A stretch of DNA of 64,000 nucleotides from contig CM119267.1 of NCBI GenBank assembly GCA_051294375.1, positions 12,409,081 through 12,473,080 on the forward strand, given 5' to 3'. Of the stretch, positions 78 through 50,100 are shown in pieces; the first letter of the stretch is position 1, and each line of letters begins with the position of its first letter. A model generated the notes under the pieces. That model had not been told where the DNA came from, did no database searches, and saw only the letters and a program-made list of their open reading frames with translations. This DNA comes from Paraspadella gotoi (taxonomy: Eukaryota; Animalia; Chaetognatha). A program made the position numbers and the translations under genes.

Positions 78-3000
78 CTTTCCGAGATCCATAAATGGTG
101 AAAGCGGGAAAATCACGTCTCCCCCGTCGGTCGGCCCGATATCGGAGTTGGGGGGCGGAAGTGGGAGGGATGGGAGGTCGATTGGGCGAACGTTTGTATA
201 CTGTATAGTTGGCTGGATCGAGTTCAAAGTTAGGCCTTGCCTGTCTGTGATTCCTGTACTTTCCATAAGTATATGAAGTTAATTTTTTTTAAATGTGAAG
301 CGCATTATTGAATATATACTTTTTAAAATATGACCGCTCAATAATATGCAAATGAGATTAAAGAACAAATTTTTCAAAATATTGGCATATAAATTAAAAT
401 CTTTACTGTCTTATCTCAACAGCAATATTTATTTATACATAAAGTTAATAACTCTTAAAATTTATATTTTTTGTATTTTTTGTATTTTTTAAAGGATATA
501 ATAATATATAATAATAATAAATAATAAATAAATAAAATAAATAAAAAATAAATAATAAATATATATATATAATAATAAATAATATGAAATTGGTACAACC
601 AATATAAAAATTATCCATTCATTTAATAAATAAGCTATCTTGCCCCTGACTTTGGACAGGTTTTGGTGGTTTAAGGCCTCCATCACTCTTACAAGATAAT
701 GACATAGCAGGTCCCTGCAAGCTTTCAAACAAGACTCTCTCACAGTCCCGTTTATTCACTCCCAGAGTACCTGGCTTCCCTATCAATGAAGTGGAAAATA
801 TTTCAAAGAATGTTTCAATTGTATATAATAATTAATATGATTAGTAATGAAAATTATTAAAGGATTTAAAGTATTATCCTTCACGTCATTCAGGAAAAAT
901 TAGTATTATTAAAATTTTAGCAAAGATCTGGGAAGATTCTAATTATAAAACTAAGAAAATGATAAAATAAAATAGTTACGGTTTTTACTAAAAAGAGGGG
1001 ACGTGCACTATAAATTATTTTAGATGATAAACAATTTCATGATTATTACAAGAAAACCTTTTATAACTATTGAGTCAACATTAGTCAACATTAGTCAATT
1101 TTTAACCAGTATTTTATGGTCTTTATTTTAACTTACCCAGATATCCAACAGAACCAAATTTATTTAAAAAATCACTACTAACTGATGCATTTAAATTAAG
1201 AGTTCTATCAATAAAAAGTATTGACTCTTTTATGGATAATTTTCATGAAGTTCAGAACAAAGAGGAGATGTCAAATTTACTCCTCAATTTTGAGGAAGGA
1301 AAAAAATCTGGATTCTTAAAATATTAAATAGGAAATCCGTAAGTTAACTTTGTTACCATTTCATCCATAATGCAAAAATTCTAACCAGAGGAGATTTTTA
1401 TATATATACTTGTCTCTTTGACGTCTGGGAAGGTTTTTGTTACTTTGTCATTTTGGTTTGAGAAAAAAAGGGAACGGTAAGCATATGCAGCTTTTCTTTA
1501 GGAAAAAACCGCTTCTGAATCTATCAATCTATGAATGCTCTTTGTCTTACATACCATTTGAAGGATTCTACCAAACATATATTTATTAGCGTGCTTATTA
1601 CCTTCAACACATTAATTTTAAAACTAAGAACCTAAAGAAAAAAACCTGTTGTTAAATTGATGGAAAACTCAATATGTAGCTTCTTACTTTGTGTCATCAA
1701 CGCTAACTAAAAGTAGATCTAGGTGCAAACAACGGCTGGAGGCAGACATAAGGAGTCTTTGTCTTTCCAAATTTGTCACAATTTATGCCACGATTTGTCA
1801 AGACGAATAAACGTTTGGACAGCTTAGATTTAGAAACTCGTTTTGTTGAATTCTTAAAATTCAGTCAGAACCCCTTTCTCGATGGGCGACCGGCCTAACA
1901 AAGAGTCTTTATGAATATGTAGATGGCGCGGCTTTAACTCACTTTGAAGTGGCGGCGTCATCTAACGAAGTTGACGAGCGTCTTGGATCTCGTGATGATT
2001 GCAAAGTTTGTCAAGCTTTGAATTAAAAGTTTCTTAAACCAACTTGCTTAGTTAATGAATAAAATTGATCTTAATAAAATAATCAAAGCATATAGATATT
2101 CTGATGTTTTTGCCATCAAGCAATCACAATATCTATATGATTAACATTGCAAGAAATCAACCAATTAATTATCTAATTAATAACAAGTAAAATGGTGAAC
2201 ATCATAATAATTAATAAGTAATAAATTAGTAATGATAACGGATTCCAGTTGAATTACTAAGTTGTGAAAAAGGTAAAAATGGTTTTCAAGTAGAACTAAA
2301 GAATCATAAGAACTAGTTTCTCTTCAGTCAGCTTATTTACTTGGGAAAAATAGGTTGTTCATTTGTTTAGTTTAAAAATAGTTTAATCGATAATAAGGAA
2401 GTTTTGAAATAGTCTTTATATCGATCTGTGATGGTTAATCAATTAGCATGGATCTGAGTGGAGGGTTAACTTCGGGTTCGAATCATATAAATGAATGACG
2501 AGAAAATTAACGAATAAAGAGTGGAGAAGAACGTTTAGCATCTGTATTAATTGTATTAATGTTTATAAAAATCCTGTAAAACTCGTTAATAACGGGCGAT
2601 AAAAAATGAACATATGTTTATCTTGGGTCTCGCCCAAATAACAACTCTGAAAAAGACAAAATATTGACAAAAGACCGGTAAATGTATTGGCCGAATTGGT
2701 GAGAACAAATTAAGGATGATAAAAATTAAGAATTTAACAGAAAAAAAAAGTAACAAAGAGTAACAAAAAATAATGGGCGAGGAATAATATTTGTTGCGGT
2801 CAGGGGCTTTATTTATTTCGGTCTTTAATATTTGTAGTCGGGCATTGCCTAGATTCACCCCGCCTAGAAATCATGACACTTTCAGTTGTGACCCGGTGCC
2901 TCATATGATAAGCCATCAGCTCATGATGGCCGTAAAGCCGCCTTGGGGGCATGGCATGGCATGGCAGCCCAGACCCGTTCCACGGCTGCTAGAGGGGATT

Positions 3001-3931
3001 ATAGAAGTTACGGGACAGTCATCTTCAGCCCACGTAGCGCCTTATCCACATATTATTCATGAATCTTAATATATTGCTTTAAATACGAGAAATAAAACAG
3101 AACTAAAATTCGATTCGCAATTGAAGATTTTTTAAAAAATTTTAAAATCTGCAGTGGATCCCGAATATTTTTTCGGAAATTATTATTGTGAAATCAAATA
3201 AAACTACATTAAGTAAAGGAATCACCGACAGGCAACATATTTTGAAAAATTATATGTGCATATGATCCGCCCTACTGTTTATTGGTTCTATTGGTTGTAC
3301 TAATTTCATATATATTATGGTGGACTAAAATCCACCAACCGTTCATCAGCGGCCATTGGTGCCGGAGGCAAGCCCTTCGCCTCCCAACCCAAAGGTCCGG
3401 GGTTCTAGCCCGGTGGTCGTCTGGCAGTTAAGAGGGACGGGGCGCTTAACCCGCCTGTAACATGGTGTTACAGCCTGATCCGAAGCTCAGGGACTGCTTA
3501 CATTGAACGGTTCTGTCATTAACACATCAATAATTACTCTCTCTTCAATATATTATAAAAAGTTTACACAGTTGACACAATCCGCCATCGACACCTCATC
3601 CGTCCTCAACACGTCCTCCTCTTACCCTTCCTCGTTTTCCCTCCCTGGCGCCGCAAAGGTGAGCTTTTATGTCTTGGGAGAACACGACATCAAATTTGGA
3701 TCCATAAATGTGTAAAATCGCTACCATTTCACTCTCTCTCTCTCTCTCTCTCTTATATATGCGTCACCAGACTTACTGCTCTTCCTTCCGAATTCGACCT
3801 GTCGCTGACCTAAGCTTCATCACCTTCATTGTTCCTAACCTCCGAACTTCCTGCCAGAAGCCATTGTCTTCGTCGTCGGCGTCTTCATCGTTTTCATCGT
3901 CGTTGTCATCTTCGAATTGAACACTTTTGAC
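78..3931 (-). CDS. Candidate exons of an unidentified gene (3931-3777, 3672-3626, ~244-78)
   Basis: GC-rich segments with AG/GT boundaries that join in phase: VKSVQFEDDNDDENDEDADDEDNGFWQEVRRLGTMKVMKLRSATGRIRKEE-QHKSSPLRRQGGKTRK-DRQGLTLNSIQPTIQY...LPLPPPNSD. No homology recognised. Confidence 0.3.
582..3311. mobile_element. Possible 2.7-kb TIR element with decayed coding remnants
   Basis: Inverted repeats ATATGAAATT(G/A)GTACAACCAATA at 582-604 and 3289-3311 (22/23 match). The left ~240 bp recurs at 18637-18836. Stop-interrupted reading frames at 1140-2025 have no recognisable motif. Confidence 0.35.
3313..3547 (+). mobile_element. Solo LTR, family 1 (tRNA-like 3349-3420, twister 3424-3497)
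   Basis: ~235 bp repeat also found at 11601, 18388(-), 25907, 29813, 32056 and 43592. Flanked by ATATA/ATATA (possible TSD, but low complexity). B-box-like GGTTCTAGCCC at 3401-3411. Confidence 0.8.
3424..3497 (+). ncRNA. Twister ribozyme, type P5, family 1 LTR
   Basis: GCAGT-taa-GAGG-GA-CGGG-gcgct-U^AA-CCC-GCC-[TGTAACA tgg TGTTACA]-G-CCTGA-TCCGAAGC-TCAGG-g-ACTGC. T1 pseudoknot CGG/CCG. Predicted cut 3447/3448. Confidence 0.8.
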
Positions 3932-11600: not shown

Positions 11601-12082
11601 TTATGGTGGACTAAAATCCACCAACCGTTCATCAACGGCCATTGGTGCCGTTGATGCCGTTGATGCCGTTGATGCCGTTGATGCCGGAGGCACCAAAGGT
11701 CCGGGGTTCTAGCCCGGTGGTCGCCTCGCAGTAAAGAGGGACGGGGCGCTTAACCCGCCTGTAATATGGTGTTACAGCCTGATCCAAAGCTCAAGGACTG
11801 CTTTTATTGAACGGTTCTGTCATTAACATATATCAATAATTACTCTTTCTTCATTGGTAAGCCCGACTTCCAAACACAACAGCAACAACAACACTTTCAG
11901 GCGACATGCCTCAACCTGGTGATGCACTTTCCACCAACAACACATAAAGGCGACATGCCTCAACTTGGTGACAAACATTCCACCAACAACAACAATTCAC
12001 TGAAGAGCCTGATCCGAAGCTCAGGGACCGCTTATTTGAATGGTTCTGTCATTAACACATATCAATAATTACTGTCTCTTCA
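11601..12082 (+). mobile_element. TRIM-like element, family 1: 5' LTR, PBS, short internal region, 5'-truncated 3' LTR
   Basis: LTR 11601-11853 ends CTTCA and is followed by TGGTAAGCCCGAC (11855-11867). Internal region has two GGCGACATGCCTCAAC repeats. The LTR 3' part recurs at ~12007-12082. Confidence 0.8.
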
Positions 12083-31712: not shown

Positions 31713-32290
31713 ATTCGCCTCCCAACCCAAAGGTCCGGGGTTCTAGCCCGGTGGCTGCCTAGCAGTTAAGAGGGACGGGGCGCTTAACCCGCCTGTAACA
31801 TGGTGTTACAGCCTGGTCCGAAGTGCTGGTACTGCTTATATGAATGGTTTTGTCATTAACACATATCAATAATAACTGTCTCTTCATTCCAAACACAACA
31901 GCAACAACAACACTTTCAGGCGACATGCCTCAACCTGGCGATGCACTCTCCGCCCAACAACACATAAGGCGACATGCCTCAACTTTGGTGACGAACTCTC
32001 CACCAACAACAATTCACTGAAGAGACGCAAAGACTTCTCCTACGGGAGGGGGGGATGTATGGGTGGACTAAAATCCACTAACCGTTCATCAGCAGCCATT
32101 GGTGCCGGAGGCAAGTCATTCGCCTCCCAACCCAAAAGTCCGGGGTTCTAGCCCGGTGGCTGCCTAGCAGTTAAGAGGGGGGCTCTTAACCCGCCTTGTA
32201 ACATGGTGTTACAGCCTGATCCGAAGCTCAGGGACTGCTTATATTGAATGGTTCTGTCATTAACACATATCAATAATTACTGTCTCTTCA
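31713..32290 (+). mobile_element. TRIM-like element, family 1: partial 5' LTR, internal region, PPT, full 3' LTR
   Basis: LTR ends at 31886 and 32290 (CTCTTCA). Same internal region as 11868-12006 but PBS deleted. PPT GGGAGGGGGGGA at 32044-32055 directly precedes the TG-start LTR at 32056. Confidence 0.8.
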
Positions 32291-33817
32291 AAATAAATAT
32301 AGATTCTGAAAGAGAAAAGATTGAATTATGTTTCTGATATAAACAAAATTTTCTTACTTCAAATGTTTATATAATTACTAAGGATAATGAATTATCATTT
32401 TGTTGAAAATTAAAACCTTTGCATAATGCCCCATTAGCTATAATAATATAGACAATTTTTTATCAAAATAGCACTACAATCTTTAATAACACGCTAATGG
32501 TTTTTTGTTCTTAATTATAATACAAGGCTTTTATCAATAAATAAAGAAAATGAGTTATTTCAAGGCTCCATATTGATACTATGATATCAATGAATTTTCT
32601 TTGTTCCGGAAATGAAATGTACCTAAGACATTGTAGTTTATTAGCTAATACTTTATTTTTATAATTTAAAGGGCATGTTTGGCAAAAAACAGTAAGAAAC
32701 AAAAATGACAACAAATTTTGAGAAAAAAATTTGAATTAATTGCTATTATTTTCTTACTATGACGTCAATTTTTTTTTTCGTTATGTGGTTGAAAGTTAGG
32801 CTTAACCCCAACAGAATCGGAATCAGTGCATGAATCGCTGTATATTTATTTGACTTATACAGTAAATACCGCAAAATAAAAATAATTTAAAAAGGATTCA
32901 GACTAAGCGCGCGTGTTTGTTTTCAGTATTTTTTTAGTCAAGACCTTTATGGATTTCTTTGTTCCGGCGGCGTTGGATAGCTCAAACACTTCAGTTTCAG
33001 AAATCATCCATGGTTTTGTAATATTTACTGCGCTACTGGTCCAAAAAATTGCTTAGAAACCGAAATTATCAGAAACCGCTTCATTCTTTCGATTTTTTTT
33101 CTAAGCGCGGAGCGACCATATGCTACATTATATGTAGTTTCGACTTTCAAGCTAAGCACCGGGCGACAAGTTTTTCACGTATAATGTTTACGTGAAACAA
33201 AACTTCATGGCAGTTTAGATTCTCGCGCGAATTCAGCGTTTTCAATCTTTTTTCCGTTATTTTATTTTGGTAGCTATATGATTCCCTTAAAGAGGCTGGT
33301 TTTACAGGGCGCCACACCCGCAGCGGTGTCACTTCGTTGGCGACAGCGAGACAGCATGTTCATGTAGTCCAGAGCTTTGGATCTGGCAGTAGGCCCATGC
33401 CTACAGGCGGGTTACCCGGTCCATCCACTTTCTACATGACAACCTCAGGGCTCGAACCAGGGACGCACATTGGGATGGTGCATTAGTCCACTGAGCCACT
33501 GAGGCGCTGCGAAAAGAAACAGCTTTAATCGATCTGTGGTGATAGGACCACCAGACAGCCGCCCCCAGGACTCTCGCATATGAGAGTACGAAGCAAGGGG
33601 ATGAAGCGCATGTCTCTCCGCTGAACCTCTCTTTATTCTGGTGGCCTTGCTTTGAGTGGCAGCTGTGTAGCTCAAACCACATCAAGGGCAGAGGAGTATT
33701 ATCATGCCCGGTTGGTTGTGTGTTCGGATCACGTCGGGCTCACATTAAAGAGGCTGGTTTTACAGGGTGCCACACCCGCAGCGGTGTCACCTCGTGGCGA
33801 CAGCGAGACAGCATGTT

Positions 33818-33896
33818 CATGTAGTCCAGAGCTTTGGATCTGGCAGTAGGCCCATGCCTACAGGCGGGTTACCCGGTCCATCCCACTTTCTACATG
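33818..33896 (-). ncRNA. Twister ribozyme, type P5, family 2 5' LTR (second copy 33361-33438)
   Basis: Minus strand CATGTAG-aaa-GTGG-GA-TGGA-ccggg-U^AA-CCC-GCC-[tGTAGGC atgg GCCTACt]-G-CCAGA-TCCAAAGC-TCTGG-a-CTACATG. Matches the twister consensus (UAA, GCC, L4 UCCNAAGC, catalytic GA followed by the T1 strand). Predicted cut 33871/33870. Confidence 0.82.
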
Positions 33897-33900
33897 ACAA

Positions 33901-33965
33901 CCTCAGGGCTCGAACCAGGGACGCACATTGGGATGGTGCATTAGTCCACTGAGCCACTGAGGCGC
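33901..33965 (-). promoter_or_regulatory. tRNA-derived Pol III type-2 promoter inside family 2 LTR
   Basis: A box TGGCTCAGTGG (33946-33956) and B box GGTTCGAGCCC (33906-33916), closed by a CCTCAG/CTGAGG stem. Confidence 0.8.
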
Positions 33966-34300
33966 TGCGAAAGAAACAGCTTTAATCGATCTGTGGTGAT
34001 AGGACCACCAGACCTGTTTATTAACATTTAAAACATTTACTTTTAACTTTTACTTATACATCTAACTATTTCTTTCCACCACAGACAATTTTTTAAAAAA
34101 TATAACAAAGTATTTTAAATTATTACAACGATTTTATATTAAGAGTACGGACATGTTTGCGGCTTGTTGTTCAAGCCTTCATCAGCATTGTCTAAAAATG
34201 TCTTAAACAATATAACAAAATTTACAATTGATTTTTAACTATACCAGTAAAAGGTAATAAAGTAATTTTATTAAAGGTTTTTTGTCAAACATTTTGTCTT

Positions 34301-37300
34301 CTACTTCCCATAGTTGCTCATCTCTGGCTTCAAGCCATTGATCATGGAAAAAGAAAGAACGAATGAAACCTGTTTCATTGCATTATCTAGATTCCAGCTG
34401 TAATGAAATTTGTTTTCCTTTTTGTTTGAAGGAAAGATAAACATCCAAAGGCTTTGCGAAGAGTTTTGTTCTCAATTCTTCAAGTGAAATCCAACCAGAA
34501 TAGTACGATAGAGATTAGGACTTTTTATCCGAGCCGTAGATCGACTGATTGTGAGATTTAATTATCGGTTCTCCCTTATAAGATGCGTTCTAGTCTTTTT
34601 ATGCCTCCTCTTTGGGCCAGCCATTCTCGTAATTGTTGCATGTTTATGAAAGTGTTGATGGTCTTTGATTGCTGCCGTTCTCATCTTTTAAATTCCTTCA
34701 TTAGTTGTTCTGATTTTTAGAACATGTCTAGTCGCTTTCTCTTTTTGCAGATCCAACTCCGACCAAAAATCTAAGAATTGCCGTGTAAATACATTACAAT
34801 TGGCAACTCTGTAAGATTTGTAAGATTCTCTGCTAATACATTTAACACTCGTTTAACATATATTCTTCTCGAAAACCGGCCAATCTGATACCGGTTAGCC
34901 ATTCTTTTAGCATCATTTTCAAAACCATCTATCTTGAGACACATTCACCAGAAACTGTTTCAGTGCTTCCTCTAATATTCTTTTCTAGCTAACTTGACAG
35001 ACATTTTTAAGTCTTCTCCTATGAACGTTCTGAGACTCCCAAAAGTGTTCACTATAACTTGGTTTGACTGCCAATCTATTCATGTAGTTTATTTTAATTG
35101 CTGCAACTTTCATTCGCCTTGAAAATATTGTATCCTTCTTCAATAACAGACGACGATATCCATCTTGACTAAAAAGTGTCTTGTACTGCAAAATTTAGCA
35201 TCCTTTAATTTCTTTGATTCAGCATAACGATTGAATCTTCAATGCAATGTGCCGCTGTCATGATCAGCCCATCTATATAATTCAAAGGATTCATTCACTA
35301 TTTTCTGCAGCTTCTTTTTCCCACAACTTACTTTCTTCTCTTAGCGAGCGAGCACTCTTTCAGATTAAAAAAAATTTTGACATTGATTTCACAAACTTCA
35401 GTCGAATATGACTTCAGAGAGGATATTATGTTTGAAATAGGTTCAATTCCGGTTTTGTGATTTTTCCCTACTTACTTAAATATTTGCATCCCTCTTTTAA
35501 CTATACTATAAATGATTCATAGATGAATCTTAATTTGTATTCAGATTCTTAGAAAGTCTCTTCATAAGGACTGAGCAGTCCATCATAGCATACATATGGT
35601 TATACTATCCTTGTGTTGGGAAATGGGGATTTTCCTTGAACCTACTTCCAGTACTCCCATTCGGAAAGTGATCTTTTTCTTTTTTTATCATAATCATCAT
35701 ATTGATTGTATTTACGAGGCCTGAACTGCTTTGGTAAAACTTTGCCTCTGCCTTTTTCAAAAACATTTTTGCTGATAGATAGTAAAACCTACCTAAATGC
35801 GCATGAGTGTGAGGATCAAAATGTTAAATTTTATACTAAAGATTTTGAAAAACATTTAGCCTTTTTTTAATGGTGTCCTTTTTCCGTTGTTCCCTCAATG
35901 CACATAATAACTTTTTGTGTACCTTAGGTGTTTCATCTTTGGTTTTCGGAAGAATTAACTACTCCCTCTCTCGAGAAAAATATTTGACACATTTACGTTT
36001 ATCAGATGTTCATGAACAAAATCGTTATCTTCAATAACAAACTGAATAAAATCTTTGTTTCATAAAACATCTAAGTTTGGATATTTAATTTCATTCATGT
36101 TTTCCCAATTGTTGTTGTTTCTCTCAGACTATTGCTTATTTCCGTTACAAACTATATGTAGAATTTCTCTGAAAAGAGGTAATGGAATCATTTTGATTTT
36201 TCTTCTCACTCGATGCTGTTGTTTGAAGGTTTAACAAGGTGCTGAATGTAATGGTTCTATCTTTTCATCAGTAAGCATATTTCCCTCCGGTTCTTCCATT
36301 ACTTTATAAAATTTTTGCAAGTCAATTGTCTCTGCATCCACTATTACCAAAAACATCTACTATAGCCAAATTATTTGCAAATTGTTCTATGCTTTTTGTC
36401 CAAATCATTGAACATGTTATGGCACATTAGGATTTTAGCCCTTTAAATTTCATGTACAAATGCCCTTAAACTAAAATTCAATTAACATTAAAGAACTCAT
36501 TTGACAATTTTTTTAATTCCTTATTTCTTTCTGGAACTACATTTATTAGTTTGTTAATCATCTGTTCAGGTTCTGATCGTTCTAACTTTCCCGATTTAAT
36601 CTCAAAACAAACTTTCTTTCCCAATCTTTAAAAGGTTTATGGTTTTTAGTTAATTTGATTAATTTCTTTGGTAATTAAAAAAGCAACTATAAGGCTTGAT
36701 GATTTTTGAAAAGATGTGACATAGAATATTTTTTCTGGCTCATCTATAAGTAGAGAACTGGAAAGTCAGTTTTATTATGATAGTAAAGTTATTTTTTTAG
36801 ACACGAGTTCAGCCAAACTCTGAATGAGACTTTTCAAACTGATTAGACTTAACTTGAGCACATGGATATCTCTTACTGTTGCTCCAAAAGAAGTTGCATT
36901 GCTAAGGTCGCTGCAGCCCCCACCTGGACTATGAAGGCGATTTTCAAAGTACCAGATTCTGCCTCGAATGAGATTTAACAATTCACTTTCGATTTCCAAG
37001 AACCATTCTCTTTGGATCGCAAATGCATCGCCACTATTTTTGCCATGTTGTCCCAACTAATACCACCTCCTTTAAGAATCAGTTCAATCTGATTCTTTCT
37101 GATAACTAAGAATCTCCTTCTTGATGCTTTTGAGGTCACAGGCACGTCTAAGAGTTTCCTCAACCCATAGTGCGTCTTCTTTGTTAACATTGGATTGTTA
37201 CATTTTGATTTGTTCTCTCATGGGAGCCAAATACCAGTTAAAGGGCTCATTCTGAGCAGCCGTTTCTTTTGATATTGTAATACTTGACTAAGGCCTAACT

Positions 37301-39188
37301 TAAAATTGTTTATTTTCTAGTGATAAATCATCGACGAATGGGTAAAAGGATGCTCGACTGCAAGGCGATAAGTTCAATATAAAAGAATCAAGGGTAAGCT
37401 GTAAATTCTAACAAATCTTAAAATTTTTCTAAAAAATTCTCCACCACAGTAAAATTTTCATTCCATAGCACAAAATCTTATATTACCAATTACAACCGCG
37501 TTTTGGAAAAAATGGTTCATTTCGTCTATAATTTTCTGTAAGAGTCTCGGGATTCTTTTGGCCCATTTCTTATAGTCAGAAGTGTACTGGTTGTAACAGA
37601 AGTGGTTACCGAGTAAAAAATATCCAGTTTATAAAAGCTTCGTCAAGGTTTGAAGTTTTTATCTTTCCAAGTTTTATTCTCAAGCCGTTTTTGTTGATAT
37701 TTACTAATAGCAAGAATGCAATCATTTTCTAATGAACTAAGCGTCAACATCAAGCTACCAATATCCACGGTACTTTGTTAAAGACTTTCGAACCGTTTCC
37801 TGCTCCAAATATCAATTTACCGTGATTAATATGTAAAAACCCATGTCTCTACCAGACTGAAAATTATCCATACTTTTACAGAGACTCCTCATGATTACAT
37901 ATTTTTTTTATGAGCTCTATATCATCATGGACAAAAAGTCTCCTTGTCATTAATTAAACCATTCAAGTTACTCGCTTGTACATTGCATCGCATGCGTTGG
38001 TGACTTATTTTTATTTCCTTGACTGTGTCCACAGTAACCTTTTTTAAACACGTTTCAAAGAAACTTCTTCATTTAAAATGCTGGTGGTCAAACGCCACGT
38101 TTTTGCCTAGAAGCTATTTCATAAACTCCGATGTGCGTGATTTCCCAGCATCCTCAAACTTACTTATTGTAAAACAGAAACGAAGGAATGTTCCAGATAA
38201 TGAATCATCCATGTAAGCAATATCAAAAATATACTTTTTCTTCTTCTTTTAACCCAACAACTTCTGACTTTCAAATTTATTGGAAGACTTAACTCCTGAT
38301 TAGAATATAACCTTTTTTCTGTCAGGGTATTCCATAGACTCAAGATGTCTCTATAGATTTTTGAACTTTCCAGGGAAACTTTTTATAGACGGATTTATTC
38401 TTTCGGATTTATTGGGAGATTTGGACAAATTGAGGATTAGCTCCAGGTCTTTTTGTTTCAGTCGTCCTTGTTCAAAGTCGATTCTGGATCGGCCAACTGA
38501 GTTACACTCTCAAGTGTTGAATCCCAGGGTCGACCGCGAGTTCAGCCAGCTGAGCACCGTTGACCTCCAAAAGGCGGTTCAAGGATTATCTAATTTGTCC
38601 AGCTTCTCATCCCAAACGATTCCCATTATTTTCTCTCTTCTTTCTCCTGGTCCTCCAAGAATTTCTTGAAGCGCTCGCCTCGTCCTCGTCCATTAGGCCC
38701 GTGTTTGAGTTCTTCGAAATCGGTAGAATTCTTCTGGATCCTAAACTCTCAATCGCGGGTCACTATCTCTGACCATTTTGGTCTCGAAGTCTGATAGTCC
38801 AATGGTGCGTCGACCGAATGGGCGATATCGTTCCTGGCCCGTCATCAACCTGTTCATCGCTTCTCGGTCCTCGTCAGAGAGCAGGTTGGCGCAAAACTTG
38901 AGTGGCAGATACTGAGGTTAAAGTCAAATCTAAGTCGTCCTCGACGGCGACTCTCTTTGATTCCTGGGGAACAGAATCTCGAATTGCGAAGGAAACAGCC
39001 GGTTTGTTGGTCTTGGATCCGCGCCGGCGCTTCCCCTTCTTTTACGTCGTTGCATATCTGTCGCTTTTTGTTTTTGAGCCACTTTGAGAGCGATCCCGCC
39101 CCCTGAACGTGACACGCCTTAATCAGGCCGGCGCCTCGCGGCCCCCGTTCCATTGTTCCACACCAAGACGACAGGGCGCAGAAAGTAT
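34301..39188 (-). pseudogene. Second, indel-riddled copy of the HEPN-SAMD9-like gene (probably unpolished long-read sequence or second haplotype, not a true pseudogene)
   Basis: Colinear and near-identical to 47171-51950, differing mostly by 1-2 nt indels. Ends at a 25-N gap at about codon 8. Confidence 0.7.
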
Positions 39189-45986: not shown

Positions 45987-47170
45987 AGCCCATTTAGCTA
46001 TAATAATACTAACAATTTTTTTATCAAAAATAGCACTACAATCTTTTAATAACACGCTAAGCATGTAGCTGCTATGGTACAAATTGGTTTTTGTTCTTTA
46101 ATTATAATACAAGGCTTTATCAATAAATAGAGACGCAAATGAGTATTTCTCGAAGGCTCCATATTGATACTATCGATATCATGAATTTTCTTTGCTTCCG
46201 GACAATGAAATGTAACCTAAGACATTGTATTTCATTAGCTAGATCGTTGTATTTTTATAATTTAAGGGCATGTTTTGGGCAAAAACGTAATAAAGAACAA
46301 AATGACAACAAATTTTGAGAAAAAAATTTGAATTAATTGCTATTATTTCTCTTACTATAGACGTCAATTTTTTTTTTCGTTATGTTGGTTGAAGTTAGGC
46401 TTAACCCCAACAGAATCGGAATCAGTGCTATGAATCGCTGTAATTTATTTGACTTACCTACAGTAAATACCGCCAAAATAAAAATAATTTAAAAAGGATT
46501 CAGACTAAGCGCCGTGTTTGTTTTTCAGTATTTTTTAGTCAAGACCTTTATGGATTTTCTTTTGTTCCGGCGGCTTGGATAGCTCAAACACTTCAGTTTC
46601 AGAAATCATCCATGGTTTTGTAATATTTACTGCGCTACTGGTCCAAAAATTGCTAGAAACCGAAATTATCAGAAACCGCTTCATTCTTTCGATTTTTTTT
46701 CTAAGCGCGGAGCGACATATCTACATTATATGTAGTTTCGACTTTCAAGCTAAGCACCGGCGACAAGTTTTCACGTATAATGTTTACGTGAAACAAAACT
46801 TCATGGCAGTTTAGATTCTCGCGCGAATTCAGCGTTTTCAATCTTTTTTCCGTTATTTTATTTTGGTAGCTATATGATTCCCTGTTTATTAACATTTAAA
46901 AACATTTACTTTTTAACTTTTATTAACATGCTAAACTAATTATTCTTTCCACCACAGACAATTTTTAAAAAATATAACAAAGTATTTTTTAAATTATTAC
47001 AACGATTTTTATTATTAAGAGACGGACATGTTTCGGCTTGTTGGCTTCAAGCCTTCATCAGCATTTGTCTAAAAATGTCTAAAAATATAACAAAATTTAC
47101 AATTGTTTTTAATTACCAGTAAAAGGTAATAAAGGTAATTTTATTAAAGTTTTTTGTCAAACTTTTGTCT

Positions 47171-50100
47171 TTACTCCCATAGTTGCTCATCTCTGGCTTC
47201 AAAGCCATTGATCATGGAAAAAGAAAGAAAGAATGAAACCTGTTTCATTGCATATCTAGATCCACTTAATGAAATTTGTTTTCCTTTTTGTTTGAAGGAA
47301 AGATAAACATCCAAAGGCTTTGGAAGAGTTTTGTTCTCAATTCTTTCAAGTGAAATCAACCCAGAATGACGATAGAGATTAGGACTTTTTATCCGGCCGT
47401 AGCATCGACTGAGTGAGGATTTAATTATCGGTTCTCCCTTATAAGATGGTTCTAGTCTTTTTATGCCTCCTCTTTGGGCCAGCCATTCTCGAATTGTTGC
47501 ATGTTTAGAAAGTGTGATGGTTCTTTGATGCTTTTCATCTTTTAATTCCTTCATTAGTTGTTCTGATTTTAGGAACATCTCTAGGTCGCTTTCTCTTTTT
47601 GCAGATCCAACTCCGACCAAAAATCTAAGAATTGCCGTGTAAAACATTACAATTGGCACTCTGTAAGATTTGTAAGATTCTTCTAATACATTTAACACTC
47701 GGTTTAACATATATTCTTCTCGAAAACCGGCCAATCTGATACCGGTTAGCCATTCTTTTAGATCATTTTCAAACCATCTATCTGAGACACATTCACCAGA
47801 ACTGTTCAGTGCTTCCTCTATATTCTTTTCTAGCAACTTGACAGACATTTTTAAGTCTTCTCCTATAACGTTTCTGAGACTCCCAAAAGTGTCACTATAA
47901 CTTGGTTTGACTGCCAATCTATTCATGTAGTTTATTTTAATTGCTGCAACTTTCATTCGCCTTGAAAATATTGTATCTTCTTCAAACAGACGAATATCCA
48001 TCTGACTAAAAAGTGTCTTGTACTGCAAATTAGCATCCTTAATTTCTTGATCAGCATAACGATCTGAATCTTCAATGCAATGGCTCGCTGTCATGATCAG
48101 CCCATCTATTAATTCAAAGGATTCATTCACTATTTCTGCAGCTTCTTTTTCCCACAACTTACTTTCTTCTCTTAGTCGAAGCGGCAAGCTCTTCAGATTA
48201 AAAAAATTTTGAATGATTTCACAATACTTCAGTCGAAATATGACTTCAGAGAGGTATGTTTGAAAATAGTGTTCAAATTCCGGTTTTGTGTATTTTTCCC
48301 TACTTAACTTAAAATGTTGGCATCCTCTTTTAACTATTTCTATAAATGATTCCATCGATGAATCTAATTTTGTATTCAGATTCTTAGAAAGTCTCTTCAT
48401 AAGACTGAGATCCATCATAGCATACATATGGTATACTATCCTTGCTGTTGGGAAATGGGGATTTTCCTTGAACCTACTTCCAGTACTCCCATCGGAAAGT
48501 GATCTTTTTCTTTTTTTATCATAATCATCAATTGATGTATTTACGAGCTGAACTGCTTTGGTAAAACTTGCCTCTGCTTTTTCAAAACATTTTGCTGATA
48601 GATAGTAAAACCTACCTAAATGCGCATGAGTGTGAGGATCAAAATGTAATTTTATACTAAGATTTTGAAAAACATTTAGCCTTTTTTTAATGGTGTCTTT
48701 TTCCGTTGTTCCCTCAATGCACATAATAACTTTTGTGTACTTAGGTGTTTCATCTTTGGTTTCGGAAGAATTAACTATCCCTCTCTCGAGAAAAATATTT
48801 GACAACATACGTTTATCAGATGTATGAACAAAATCGTTATCTTCAATAACAAACTGAATAAAATCTTTTAATAAAACATCTAAGTTTGGATATTTAATTT
48901 CATTCATGTTTTCCCAATTGTTGTTGTTCTCCAGACTATTGCTTATTTCCGTTAAAACTATATGTAGAATTTCCTCTGAAAAGAGGTAATGGATCATTTT
49001 GATTTTTCTTTCATCGATGCTGTTGTTTGAAGGTTTAACAAGGTGCTGAAGTAATGGTTCTATCTTTTCATCAGTAAGCAGTATTTCCCTCCGGTTCTTC
49101 CATTACTTTATAAAATTTTTGCAAGTCAATGTCTCTGCATCCACTATTACCAAAAACATCTACTAATGCCAAATATTTGCAAATTGTTCTATGCTTTTTG
49201 TCCAAATCATTTCGAACATGTTATGGACATAGGATTTTAGCCCTTTAAATTCATGTACAAATGCCCTTAAACTAAATTCAATTAACATTAAAGAACTCTT
49301 TGACAATTTTTTTAATTCCTTATTTCTTTCTGGAACTACATTTATTAGTTTGTTAATCATCTGTTCAGGTTCTGATCGTTCTAACTTTCCGATAATCTCA
49401 AAACAAACTTTCTTTCCCCATTCTTTAAAAGGTTTATGGTTTTTAGTTAATTTGATATTTCTTTTGGTAATTAAAAAAACGCAACTATAAGGCTTGATGA
49501 TTTTTGAAAGATGTGACATGAATATTTTTTCTGGCTCATCTATAAGTAAGAGAACTGGAAAGTCAGTTTTATTATGAAGTAAAGTTATTTTTTTAGACAC
49601 GAGTTCAGCCAACTCTGAATGAGACTTTTCAAACTGATTAGACTTAACTTGAGCACATGGATATCTCTTATGTATGCTCCAAAGAAGTTGCATTGCTAAG
49701 GTCGTGCAGCCCCCACCTGGACTATGAACGATTTCAACAGTACCAGATTCTGCCTCGATGAGATTTAACAATTCACTTTCGATTTCCAAGAACCATTCTC
49801 TTTGGATCGCAAATGAGCAATCGCCATATTTTTGCCATGTGTCCCAACTAATACCACCTCCTTTTAAGAATTCAGTTTCAATCTGATTTCTTTCTTGATA
49901 ACTAAGAATCTCCTCTTGATTGCTTTTGAGGTACAGGACGTCTAAAGTCTCCTCAACCCATAGTGCGTCTTCTTTTGTTAACATTGGATTGTTACATTTT
50001 GATTTGTCTCTCATGGGGAGCAAATATCCAGTTAAAGGGTCATTCTGAGCAGCCGTTTCTTTTTTGATATTTGCTAATACTTGACTAAGGCCTAACTTAA

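Follow-up and report, generated by a model that had tools for sequence, protein, structure and literature searches.

Two described groups of retroelements come closest to the locus analysed here, a miniature element (family F1) with long terminal repeats (LTRs) on the minus strand of a 64,000-nt stretch of the chaetognath Paraspadella gotoi (assembly GCA_051294375.1, contig CM119267.1, positions 12,409,081 to 12,473,080; the window). The LTR retrozymes of plants are non-coding and carry a self-cleaving ribozyme in each LTR together with a site for primer binding (PBS) as well as a polypurine tract (PPT) (PMC4918200, PMC7761336). They also have a 4-bp target duplication, an inferred dependence on Gypsy elements and a unit RNA lying between two cuts, and all of these features recur, as observed or predicted, in F1, whose duplication measures 3-4 bp. 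The Helenus/TRIMp3 elements (PMC10886601) are miniature terminal-repeat retrotransposons (TRIMs) of <1 kb with A and B boxes of tRNA origin in the LTR, a PBS and a PPT. Animal Helenus also has a 4-bp duplication, to be compared with the 3-4 bp of F1, and, in Helenus-2 of Synergus wasps, the Trp primer also proposed for F1 (PMC10886601). On the analysis below, F1 is rather likely to be a non-coding, recently inserted LTR retrozyme that is driven by RNA polymerase III (Pol III) and based on a twister ribozyme.

Anatomy and insertion of the miniature element

The preliminary description of this DNA had recognised two ~268-bp direct repeats around a ~190-bp non-coding core, and alignment bore this out: positions 33287-33556 and 33745-34013 were 98.2% identical over 271 columns, giving LTRs of ~268 bp whose internal differences were three single-base indels and two substitutions. 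The whole element (33288-34012; F1 features lie on the minus strand) measures 725 bp and is non-coding, and no meaningful open reading frame (ORF) was present in the internal region (33556-33745, 190 bp). Of the limits first given, 33288 and 34013, the start was retained and the outer 5' boundary is best placed at 34012. The 5' LTR (33746-34012) has no TG at its outer end and ends in TA, and the 3' LTR (33288-33555) has TG at its inner start. The proposed tRNA-Trp-like PBS (33727-33744), one base after the 5' LTR, was upheld, matching the 3' end of bee tRNA-Trp (PMC10886601 Fig S2) at 16 of 19 positions by hand comparison. The PPT proposed with it (33559-33566) is present but weak, with purines at seven of eight positions, and is followed by C and TG directly before the 3' LTR.

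F1 forms a GC-rich island in AT-rich, repeat-dense DNA. The region around it is duplicated within the window and the second copy lacks the element, showing instead an empty site with a single CCCT (46880-46883, +). F1 itself is flanked by CCCT on the left (33284-33287, +) and by CCT, one C short, on the right (34013-34015, +), so that the reading as a miniature LTR element gained both an empty site and target duplications. The two copies of the region differed by 21 mismatches and 168 gap openings over 2845 columns. With mismatches so few and gap openings so many, indel errors are probably frequent in the assembly, and one-base homopolymer differences are untrustworthy. The duplicated region may be an uncollapsed allele; whether it is a duplication or an allele, the sequences indicate that the F1 insertion is recent. 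Among the multi-kilobase duplications at 21576-51950, indels far outnumber substitutions, which likely reflects haplotypes left uncollapsed or a long-read assembly that was not polished.

The same layout recurs in a second family, F2, whose primer site is related and whose purine tract is strong. Five independent F2 insertions were counted in the window, duplication having brought one of them to three copies. These include a solo LTR with a tRNA-like head and an intact twister fold (3316-3547, +; flanks ATAT/ATAT), an internally deleted element (11602-12082, +; Trp-like primer site at 11855; flanks AAAT/AAAT) and a degenerate two-LTR copy (31713-32290, +) with a strong purine tract and cut sites 402 nt apart. 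Exact 4-bp duplications were seen in two of the four F2 insertions having both ends, the boundary being picked after a few offsets had been tried. The Helenus features of two LTRs, <1 kb, no coding capacity, A and B boxes in the LTR, PBS and PPT were all found in F1, and where Helenus has the 4-bp duplication, F1 shows CCCT/CCT with its empty site and F2 the two exact cases. As in LTR retrozymes, a ribozyme motif lies in each F1 LTR alongside a PBS, a PPT and a short duplication; their type III hammerhead was not found, the Rfam search giving no hammerhead match in F1. By its layout, F1 together with F2 is accordingly classed here as a TRIM from sequence. Outer 5' ends without TG were common to F1 and F2 (34012, 3316, 11602, ~25910 and ~18635), which suggests non-canonical processed ends. 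Two F2 LTRs stand directly after the 3' end motif of a further repeat, F4 (3286-3316 and 18631-18660), a placement possibly due to target preference.

The tRNA head followed by a ribozyme is a logic common to F1 and schistosome SMalpha (PMC6765202), and the locus could on that basis be taken for 1.6 units of a tandem SINE-like (short interspersed element) retrozyme and not for an LTR element. Such an array is scarcely credible here: the primer site abuts one repeat and the purine tract the other in two families, and there are duplications of 3-4 bp, solo LTRs and no tail.

The twister fold and its relatives

A type-P5 twister fold had been placed behind tRNA A and B boxes in each LTR, and the positions held in both. 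The tRNA-like heads occupy 33900-33963 in the 5' LTR (A box 33956-33946, B box 33916-33906) and 33442-33505 in the 3' LTR (A box 33498-33488, B box 33458-33448); box starts are 40 bases apart and the head has a 7-bp acceptor-like stem. ARAGORN called no tRNA gene across the window, the F1 head included. The two folds lie at 33817-33897 (predicted cut 33871/33870, general-base G at 33882) and 33360-33439 (predicted cut 33414/33413; its P2 is one G shorter). With U(-1) at 33871 and 33414, the spacing of 457 nt given in the preliminary description was confirmed, and the predicted unit-length RNA spans 33414-33870.

In both LTRs the full set of twister elements is arranged in P5 order, with pseudoknots T1 (UCCA/UGGA) and T2 (GC/GC) and, judged against the Rfam consensus lines, the catalytic A+1, A2, the general-base G and the L4 adenines. 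In the minimum-energy structure P3 (6 bp), P4 (5 bp) and P5 formed unaided with pair probabilities of 0.93-1.0 (ViennaRNA), and the P3 arm is by eye close to the Rfam twister-P1 consensus. Among ~2600 natural type-P1 twisters, defects in P1 and P2 were harmless and the pseudoknots and catalytic bases critical (PMC11662667). The sensitive set (both pseudoknots, A+1, A2, general-base G, P4 closing pair and L4 A) is intact in both F1 copies, and the F1 twister is, as judged from its sequence, very probably active.

A descriptor fitted to these elements produced 0.15 matches per shuffled window (40 shuffles) and none in 5000 LTR shuffles; because it was tuned to these elements and passed only 1 of 18 phage loci, it measures specificity only. 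With an earlier, stricter version the figures were 0.01 per window (100 shuffles) and 0 of 20000, but of the two F1 copies it passed the one in the 5' LTR only. Circular folding energy was modestly low (z = -2.0 for F1 against 100 shuffles, -2.5 for F2).

The type-P5 assignment was strengthened by three further families with covariation and by conservation confined to the B box and the ribozyme. F1 and F2 shared 74% identity over the ribozyme core, against 46% after shuffling, and 68% at the B box; the rest of the 3' part of the LTR was at background and the internal region at 48% against 46% shuffled. In F3 the fold (17722-17812, +) follows a decayed tRNA-like head. The repeat that contains it (17609-17846, +) has inverted termini and a purine tract in front, and no target duplication was seen. 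In F4 the twister (638-696, minus strand; second copy at 18695-18754) is without a P3 hairpin and belongs to an AT-rich repeat of ~240 bp whose ends resemble TG...CA; a further fragment was noted near 52757-52807. A and B boxes were not found in F4.

A structure alignment of nine F1-F3 copies, with a fragment and the two duplicates of an F2 copy excluded, showed pairing in 87.3% of 204 cells, compared with 27-48% in slid controls. Shuffling gave a mean of 83.2 with 1 of 500 as high, a test that is inflated by sequence relatedness. Changes on both sides of a pair were found across F1-F3 in T1 (the change being in F2), P4 (two pairs) and P5, and in F4 in T2 (AC/GU for GC/GC) and the first P2 pair, with the same bulge kept. 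A model trained only on seven F1 and F2 copies found the held-out F3 (E 1e-6) and the unsuspected F4 (E ~2e-4). Rfam Twister-P5 matched F4 end to end (positions 1-58, E 4.3e-4), its 25.9 bits lying below the gathering score of 37.6, and twister-P1 matched F3 in part (E 0.022). An Rfam twister match had been named as a check for F1, which failed it directly and passed only by way of F4.

Further searches set these scores in context. Rfam coped well with the P5 twisters of phages in a positive control: of 14 phage loci picked by motif, 6 passed the Twister-P5 gathering score. The P1 of that model is long and a P3 hairpin is missing from it; three of the six passing phage twisters have three-base P2 strands. 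In a model built from 33 phage twister cores (R1), F3 and two F2 copies were the top three of ten matches. In a reverse test, a second model (R2, 80 of 130 loci) matched many twister regions, with 44 matches at E<=1 (best E 1e-4); it was accorded little weight, since the choice of loci had been guided by motif and two of the metagenome matches that are no twisters scored too (E 0.19 and 0.25). Tandem twister-P1 pairs were noticed in phage contigs L011 (130-229) and L015 (110-209).

Proposed mechanism, alternatives and neighbouring genes

Transcription of F1 by Pol III, as proposed from the A and B boxes, is likely, and would start near 33963, the inferred +1. For Helenus itself such transcription is also putative (PMC10886601). 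The preliminary description had also argued from a transcribed strand essentially free of T4 terminators. The 457-nt unit (55% GC) contains one T4 run against a mean of 0.33 in 5000 shuffles, which is not significant; scarcity of T4 is explained by composition and its depletion was rejected as evidence for Pol III. That run, TTTT at 33515-33512, is the only one on the minus strand of F1 and is T3 in the other LTR; it is possibly a weak terminator or a homopolymer error. Intact F2 LTRs have no T run at the corresponding place.

Double self-cleavage would then yield the 457-nt linear monomer, and production of this unit-length RNA is considered probable. Under the P5 permutation the monomer ends would carry the two halves of one ribozyme, which would keep them side by side for an RtcB-type ligase of the host to join into a circle; such joining has been demonstrated for animal hammerhead retrozymes (PMC7229834). 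Accumulation of the circle, with precedents in PMC4918200 and PMC7229834, is favoured to a lesser degree. A Gypsy-type partner primed with tRNA-Trp would copy the circle. Since the circle would hold one whole LTR, reverse transcription from tRNA-Trp could rebuild the LTR-internal-LTR order without a repeated R region. The doubly cut RNA lacks such a repeat, and its copying therefore needs either a circle or an end-to-end jump, as modelled for plant LTR retrozymes (PMC4918200). A Gypsy partner is suggested by the 4-bp duplication and the Trp primer, following the argument made for animal Helenus (PMC10886601). Plant retrozymes are the analogy from which we infer self-cleavage, transcription by Pol III, ligation by RtcB and a circle as template; the last of these is put forward tentatively, at slightly under even chances.

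The absence of a T4 run downstream of the tRNA head in either LTR, the next being at 33202, 86 bases outside, would also suit an active twister serving as a 3'-end former in an ordinary Helenus-type cycle, with any circle a by-product. Transcripts that escaped the first cut and were cut at the second would possess a 93-nt R region for normal strand transfer. Many ribozyme-less animal Helenus LTRs end, by eye, in a T run after the B box (PMC10886601), natural twister cleavage is incomplete, averaging ~0.76 (PMC11662667), and P2 of F1 is weak. Double cutting should nevertheless dominate because both copies share their local context. Fish Helenus elements have, by eye, neither a T run nor an evident ribozyme (PMC10886601), so that a terminator substitute is not required, and the tobacco retrozyme LTR ribozyme strips the 5' part efficiently in vivo (PMC12029980). 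A role confined to 3'-end formation is thus rated as fairly unlikely, and it is the chief competitor of the twister-made circular template.

The same permutation places complementary halves at both ends of the monomer, which might accordingly stay unligated as a ring kept by the ribozyme helices, with reverse transcriptase jumping the nick. A ligated circle would recreate the cut site, and twister 3' fragments ligate poorly (30%; PMC8782182). Animal retrozyme monomers are however circularised by RtcB at 30-80% (PMC7229834), and the exact U^A junction in both LTRs would require an error-free jump. The unligated ring is considered improbable beside the ligated one.

A number of results weigh against a twister-based retrozyme. 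F1 was not matched by the Rfam twister models at gathering or at E<=10 on three scales, and was absent from the R1 results at E<=10; R1 penalises the compensated positions of F1 because its training loci were selected for the exact canonical loop. P1 is absent from F1, and P2 is an imperfect 3-bp helix with a bulge in the 5' LTR and a mismatch in the 3' LTR. ViennaRNA favoured a shifted P2 that buries the catalytic G, the P2 pairs in twister register having probability 0.0. The fitted descriptor passed only 1 of 10 F2 copies and fragments. The TTTT falls within the predicted unit and upstream of the second ribozyme, and the ligated circle would restore an intact twister able to recut itself. 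Beyond the window the search for relatives gave three metagenome matches, none an element or a twister and read as unrelated bacterial DNA; the scan of viral contigs gave 0 relatives, and no autonomous partner was found in the window. The negative covariance-model tests on F1 and the off-pathway P2 register would fit an inactive relic or a look-alike within a Helenus LTR, for instance from a captured SINE. Against this stand the compensatory changes that four families show in the two pseudoknots, the confinement of F1-F2 conservation to the core and the F4 match to Rfam, and a relic is regarded as very unlikely.

Elsewhere in the window, large ORFs of 935 and 643 aa lie at 47171-51970 (minus strand), with a decayed copy near 34013-39188. 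They gave matches to HEPN_DZIP3 and weakly to AlbA_2 and STAND NTPase, and we take them to be SAMD9-like; the 935-aa ORF had no homolog at E<=1e-10 among 7988 candidates. Its HEPN_DZIP3 domain points to animal DNA. A reverse transcriptase fragment at 14403-15035 (+; RVT_1, E 2e-11) is non-LTR-like by eye.

Relation to known systems

The statement that no twister was known inside TRIMs agrees with a search of the open-access literature (the scope being that literature, and not subscription papers, Repbase or Dfam), in whose accessible parts a twister inside an LTR or TRIM was nowhere reported. In a 2026 preprint LTR retrozymes are still presented as bearing hammerheads and as occurring mainly in plants (10.64898/2026.07.22.740005), the available text of PMC5680766 has nothing on twisters in LTRs, and metatranscriptomes contain twister-bearing circular RNAs (10.1101/2022.07.19.500677). 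At the level of sequence F1 is real and well supported; its mechanism is the part that we infer.

Plant LTR retrozymes have a type III hammerhead, a tRNA-Met primer, circles of 600-1000 nt and probably Pol II transcription (PMC12029980), whereas F1 has a type-P5 twister, a Trp-like primer, a tRNA-type internal promoter and a predicted circle of 457 nt. F1 would therefore be retrozyme-like in its working without being a strict member, its fold being of twister and not of hammerhead type. From Helenus it differs in the ~150 bases with a ribozyme after the tRNA head and in an outer end without TG. Twister is mentioned 0 times in the accessible text of the Helenus paper (PMC10886601), and motif searches of its consensus file, in which line breaks can hide matches, gave no twister. 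In the same file, an apparent type III hammerhead was seen by eye directly behind the tRNA-like head of Helenus-2_SyJa-LTR and Helenus-2_SyUm-LTR. It shows loop-loop complementarity, the elements use a tRNA-Trp primer, and the available main text does not mention it (PMC10886601). Synergus Helenus-2 is probably an unrecognised animal LTR retrozyme; the architecture therefore looks recurrent, and the claim of uniqueness for F1 was lowered.

SMalpha and the animal non-LTR retrozymes have the ribozyme-released monomers and the circularisation by RtcB that are predicted for F1 (PMC6765202, PMC7229834, 10.64898/2026.07.22.740005), and SMalpha also has the Pol III tRNA head (PMC6765202). Unlike F1, they are tandem repeats with a type I hammerhead and without LTR, PBS or PPT. 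The twister variants of Perere-3 are at work in a retrotransposon, as is proposed for F1, but there an autonomous non-LTR element has its 5' end trimmed by a single ribozyme and no circle is made (PMC8501958).

Eukaryotic twisters are abundant and have one documented job, the trimming of a non-LTR element; F1 combines a twister fold with a putative internal Pol III promoter and LTR machinery. It poses the questions of whether a natural retrotransposon makes its circle by twister and how such a circle would avoid recutting, and suggests that curated TRIM libraries may hide ribozymes missed by standard Rfam scans. The engineered Tornado system uses Pol III, two twisters and RtcB-type ends, in P3 and P1 permutations whose ribozyme cores leave the circle, whereas the predicted F1 circle would hold a whole twister. 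The wider proposal, advanced as a possibility a little short of an even one, is that animals harbour overlooked Pol III-driven, tRNA-Trp-primed LTR retrozymes in which the ribozyme is interchangeable, a twister here and a type III hammerhead in Synergus, and that F1 would be a natural counterpart of Tornado, transposing via a twister-made circle.
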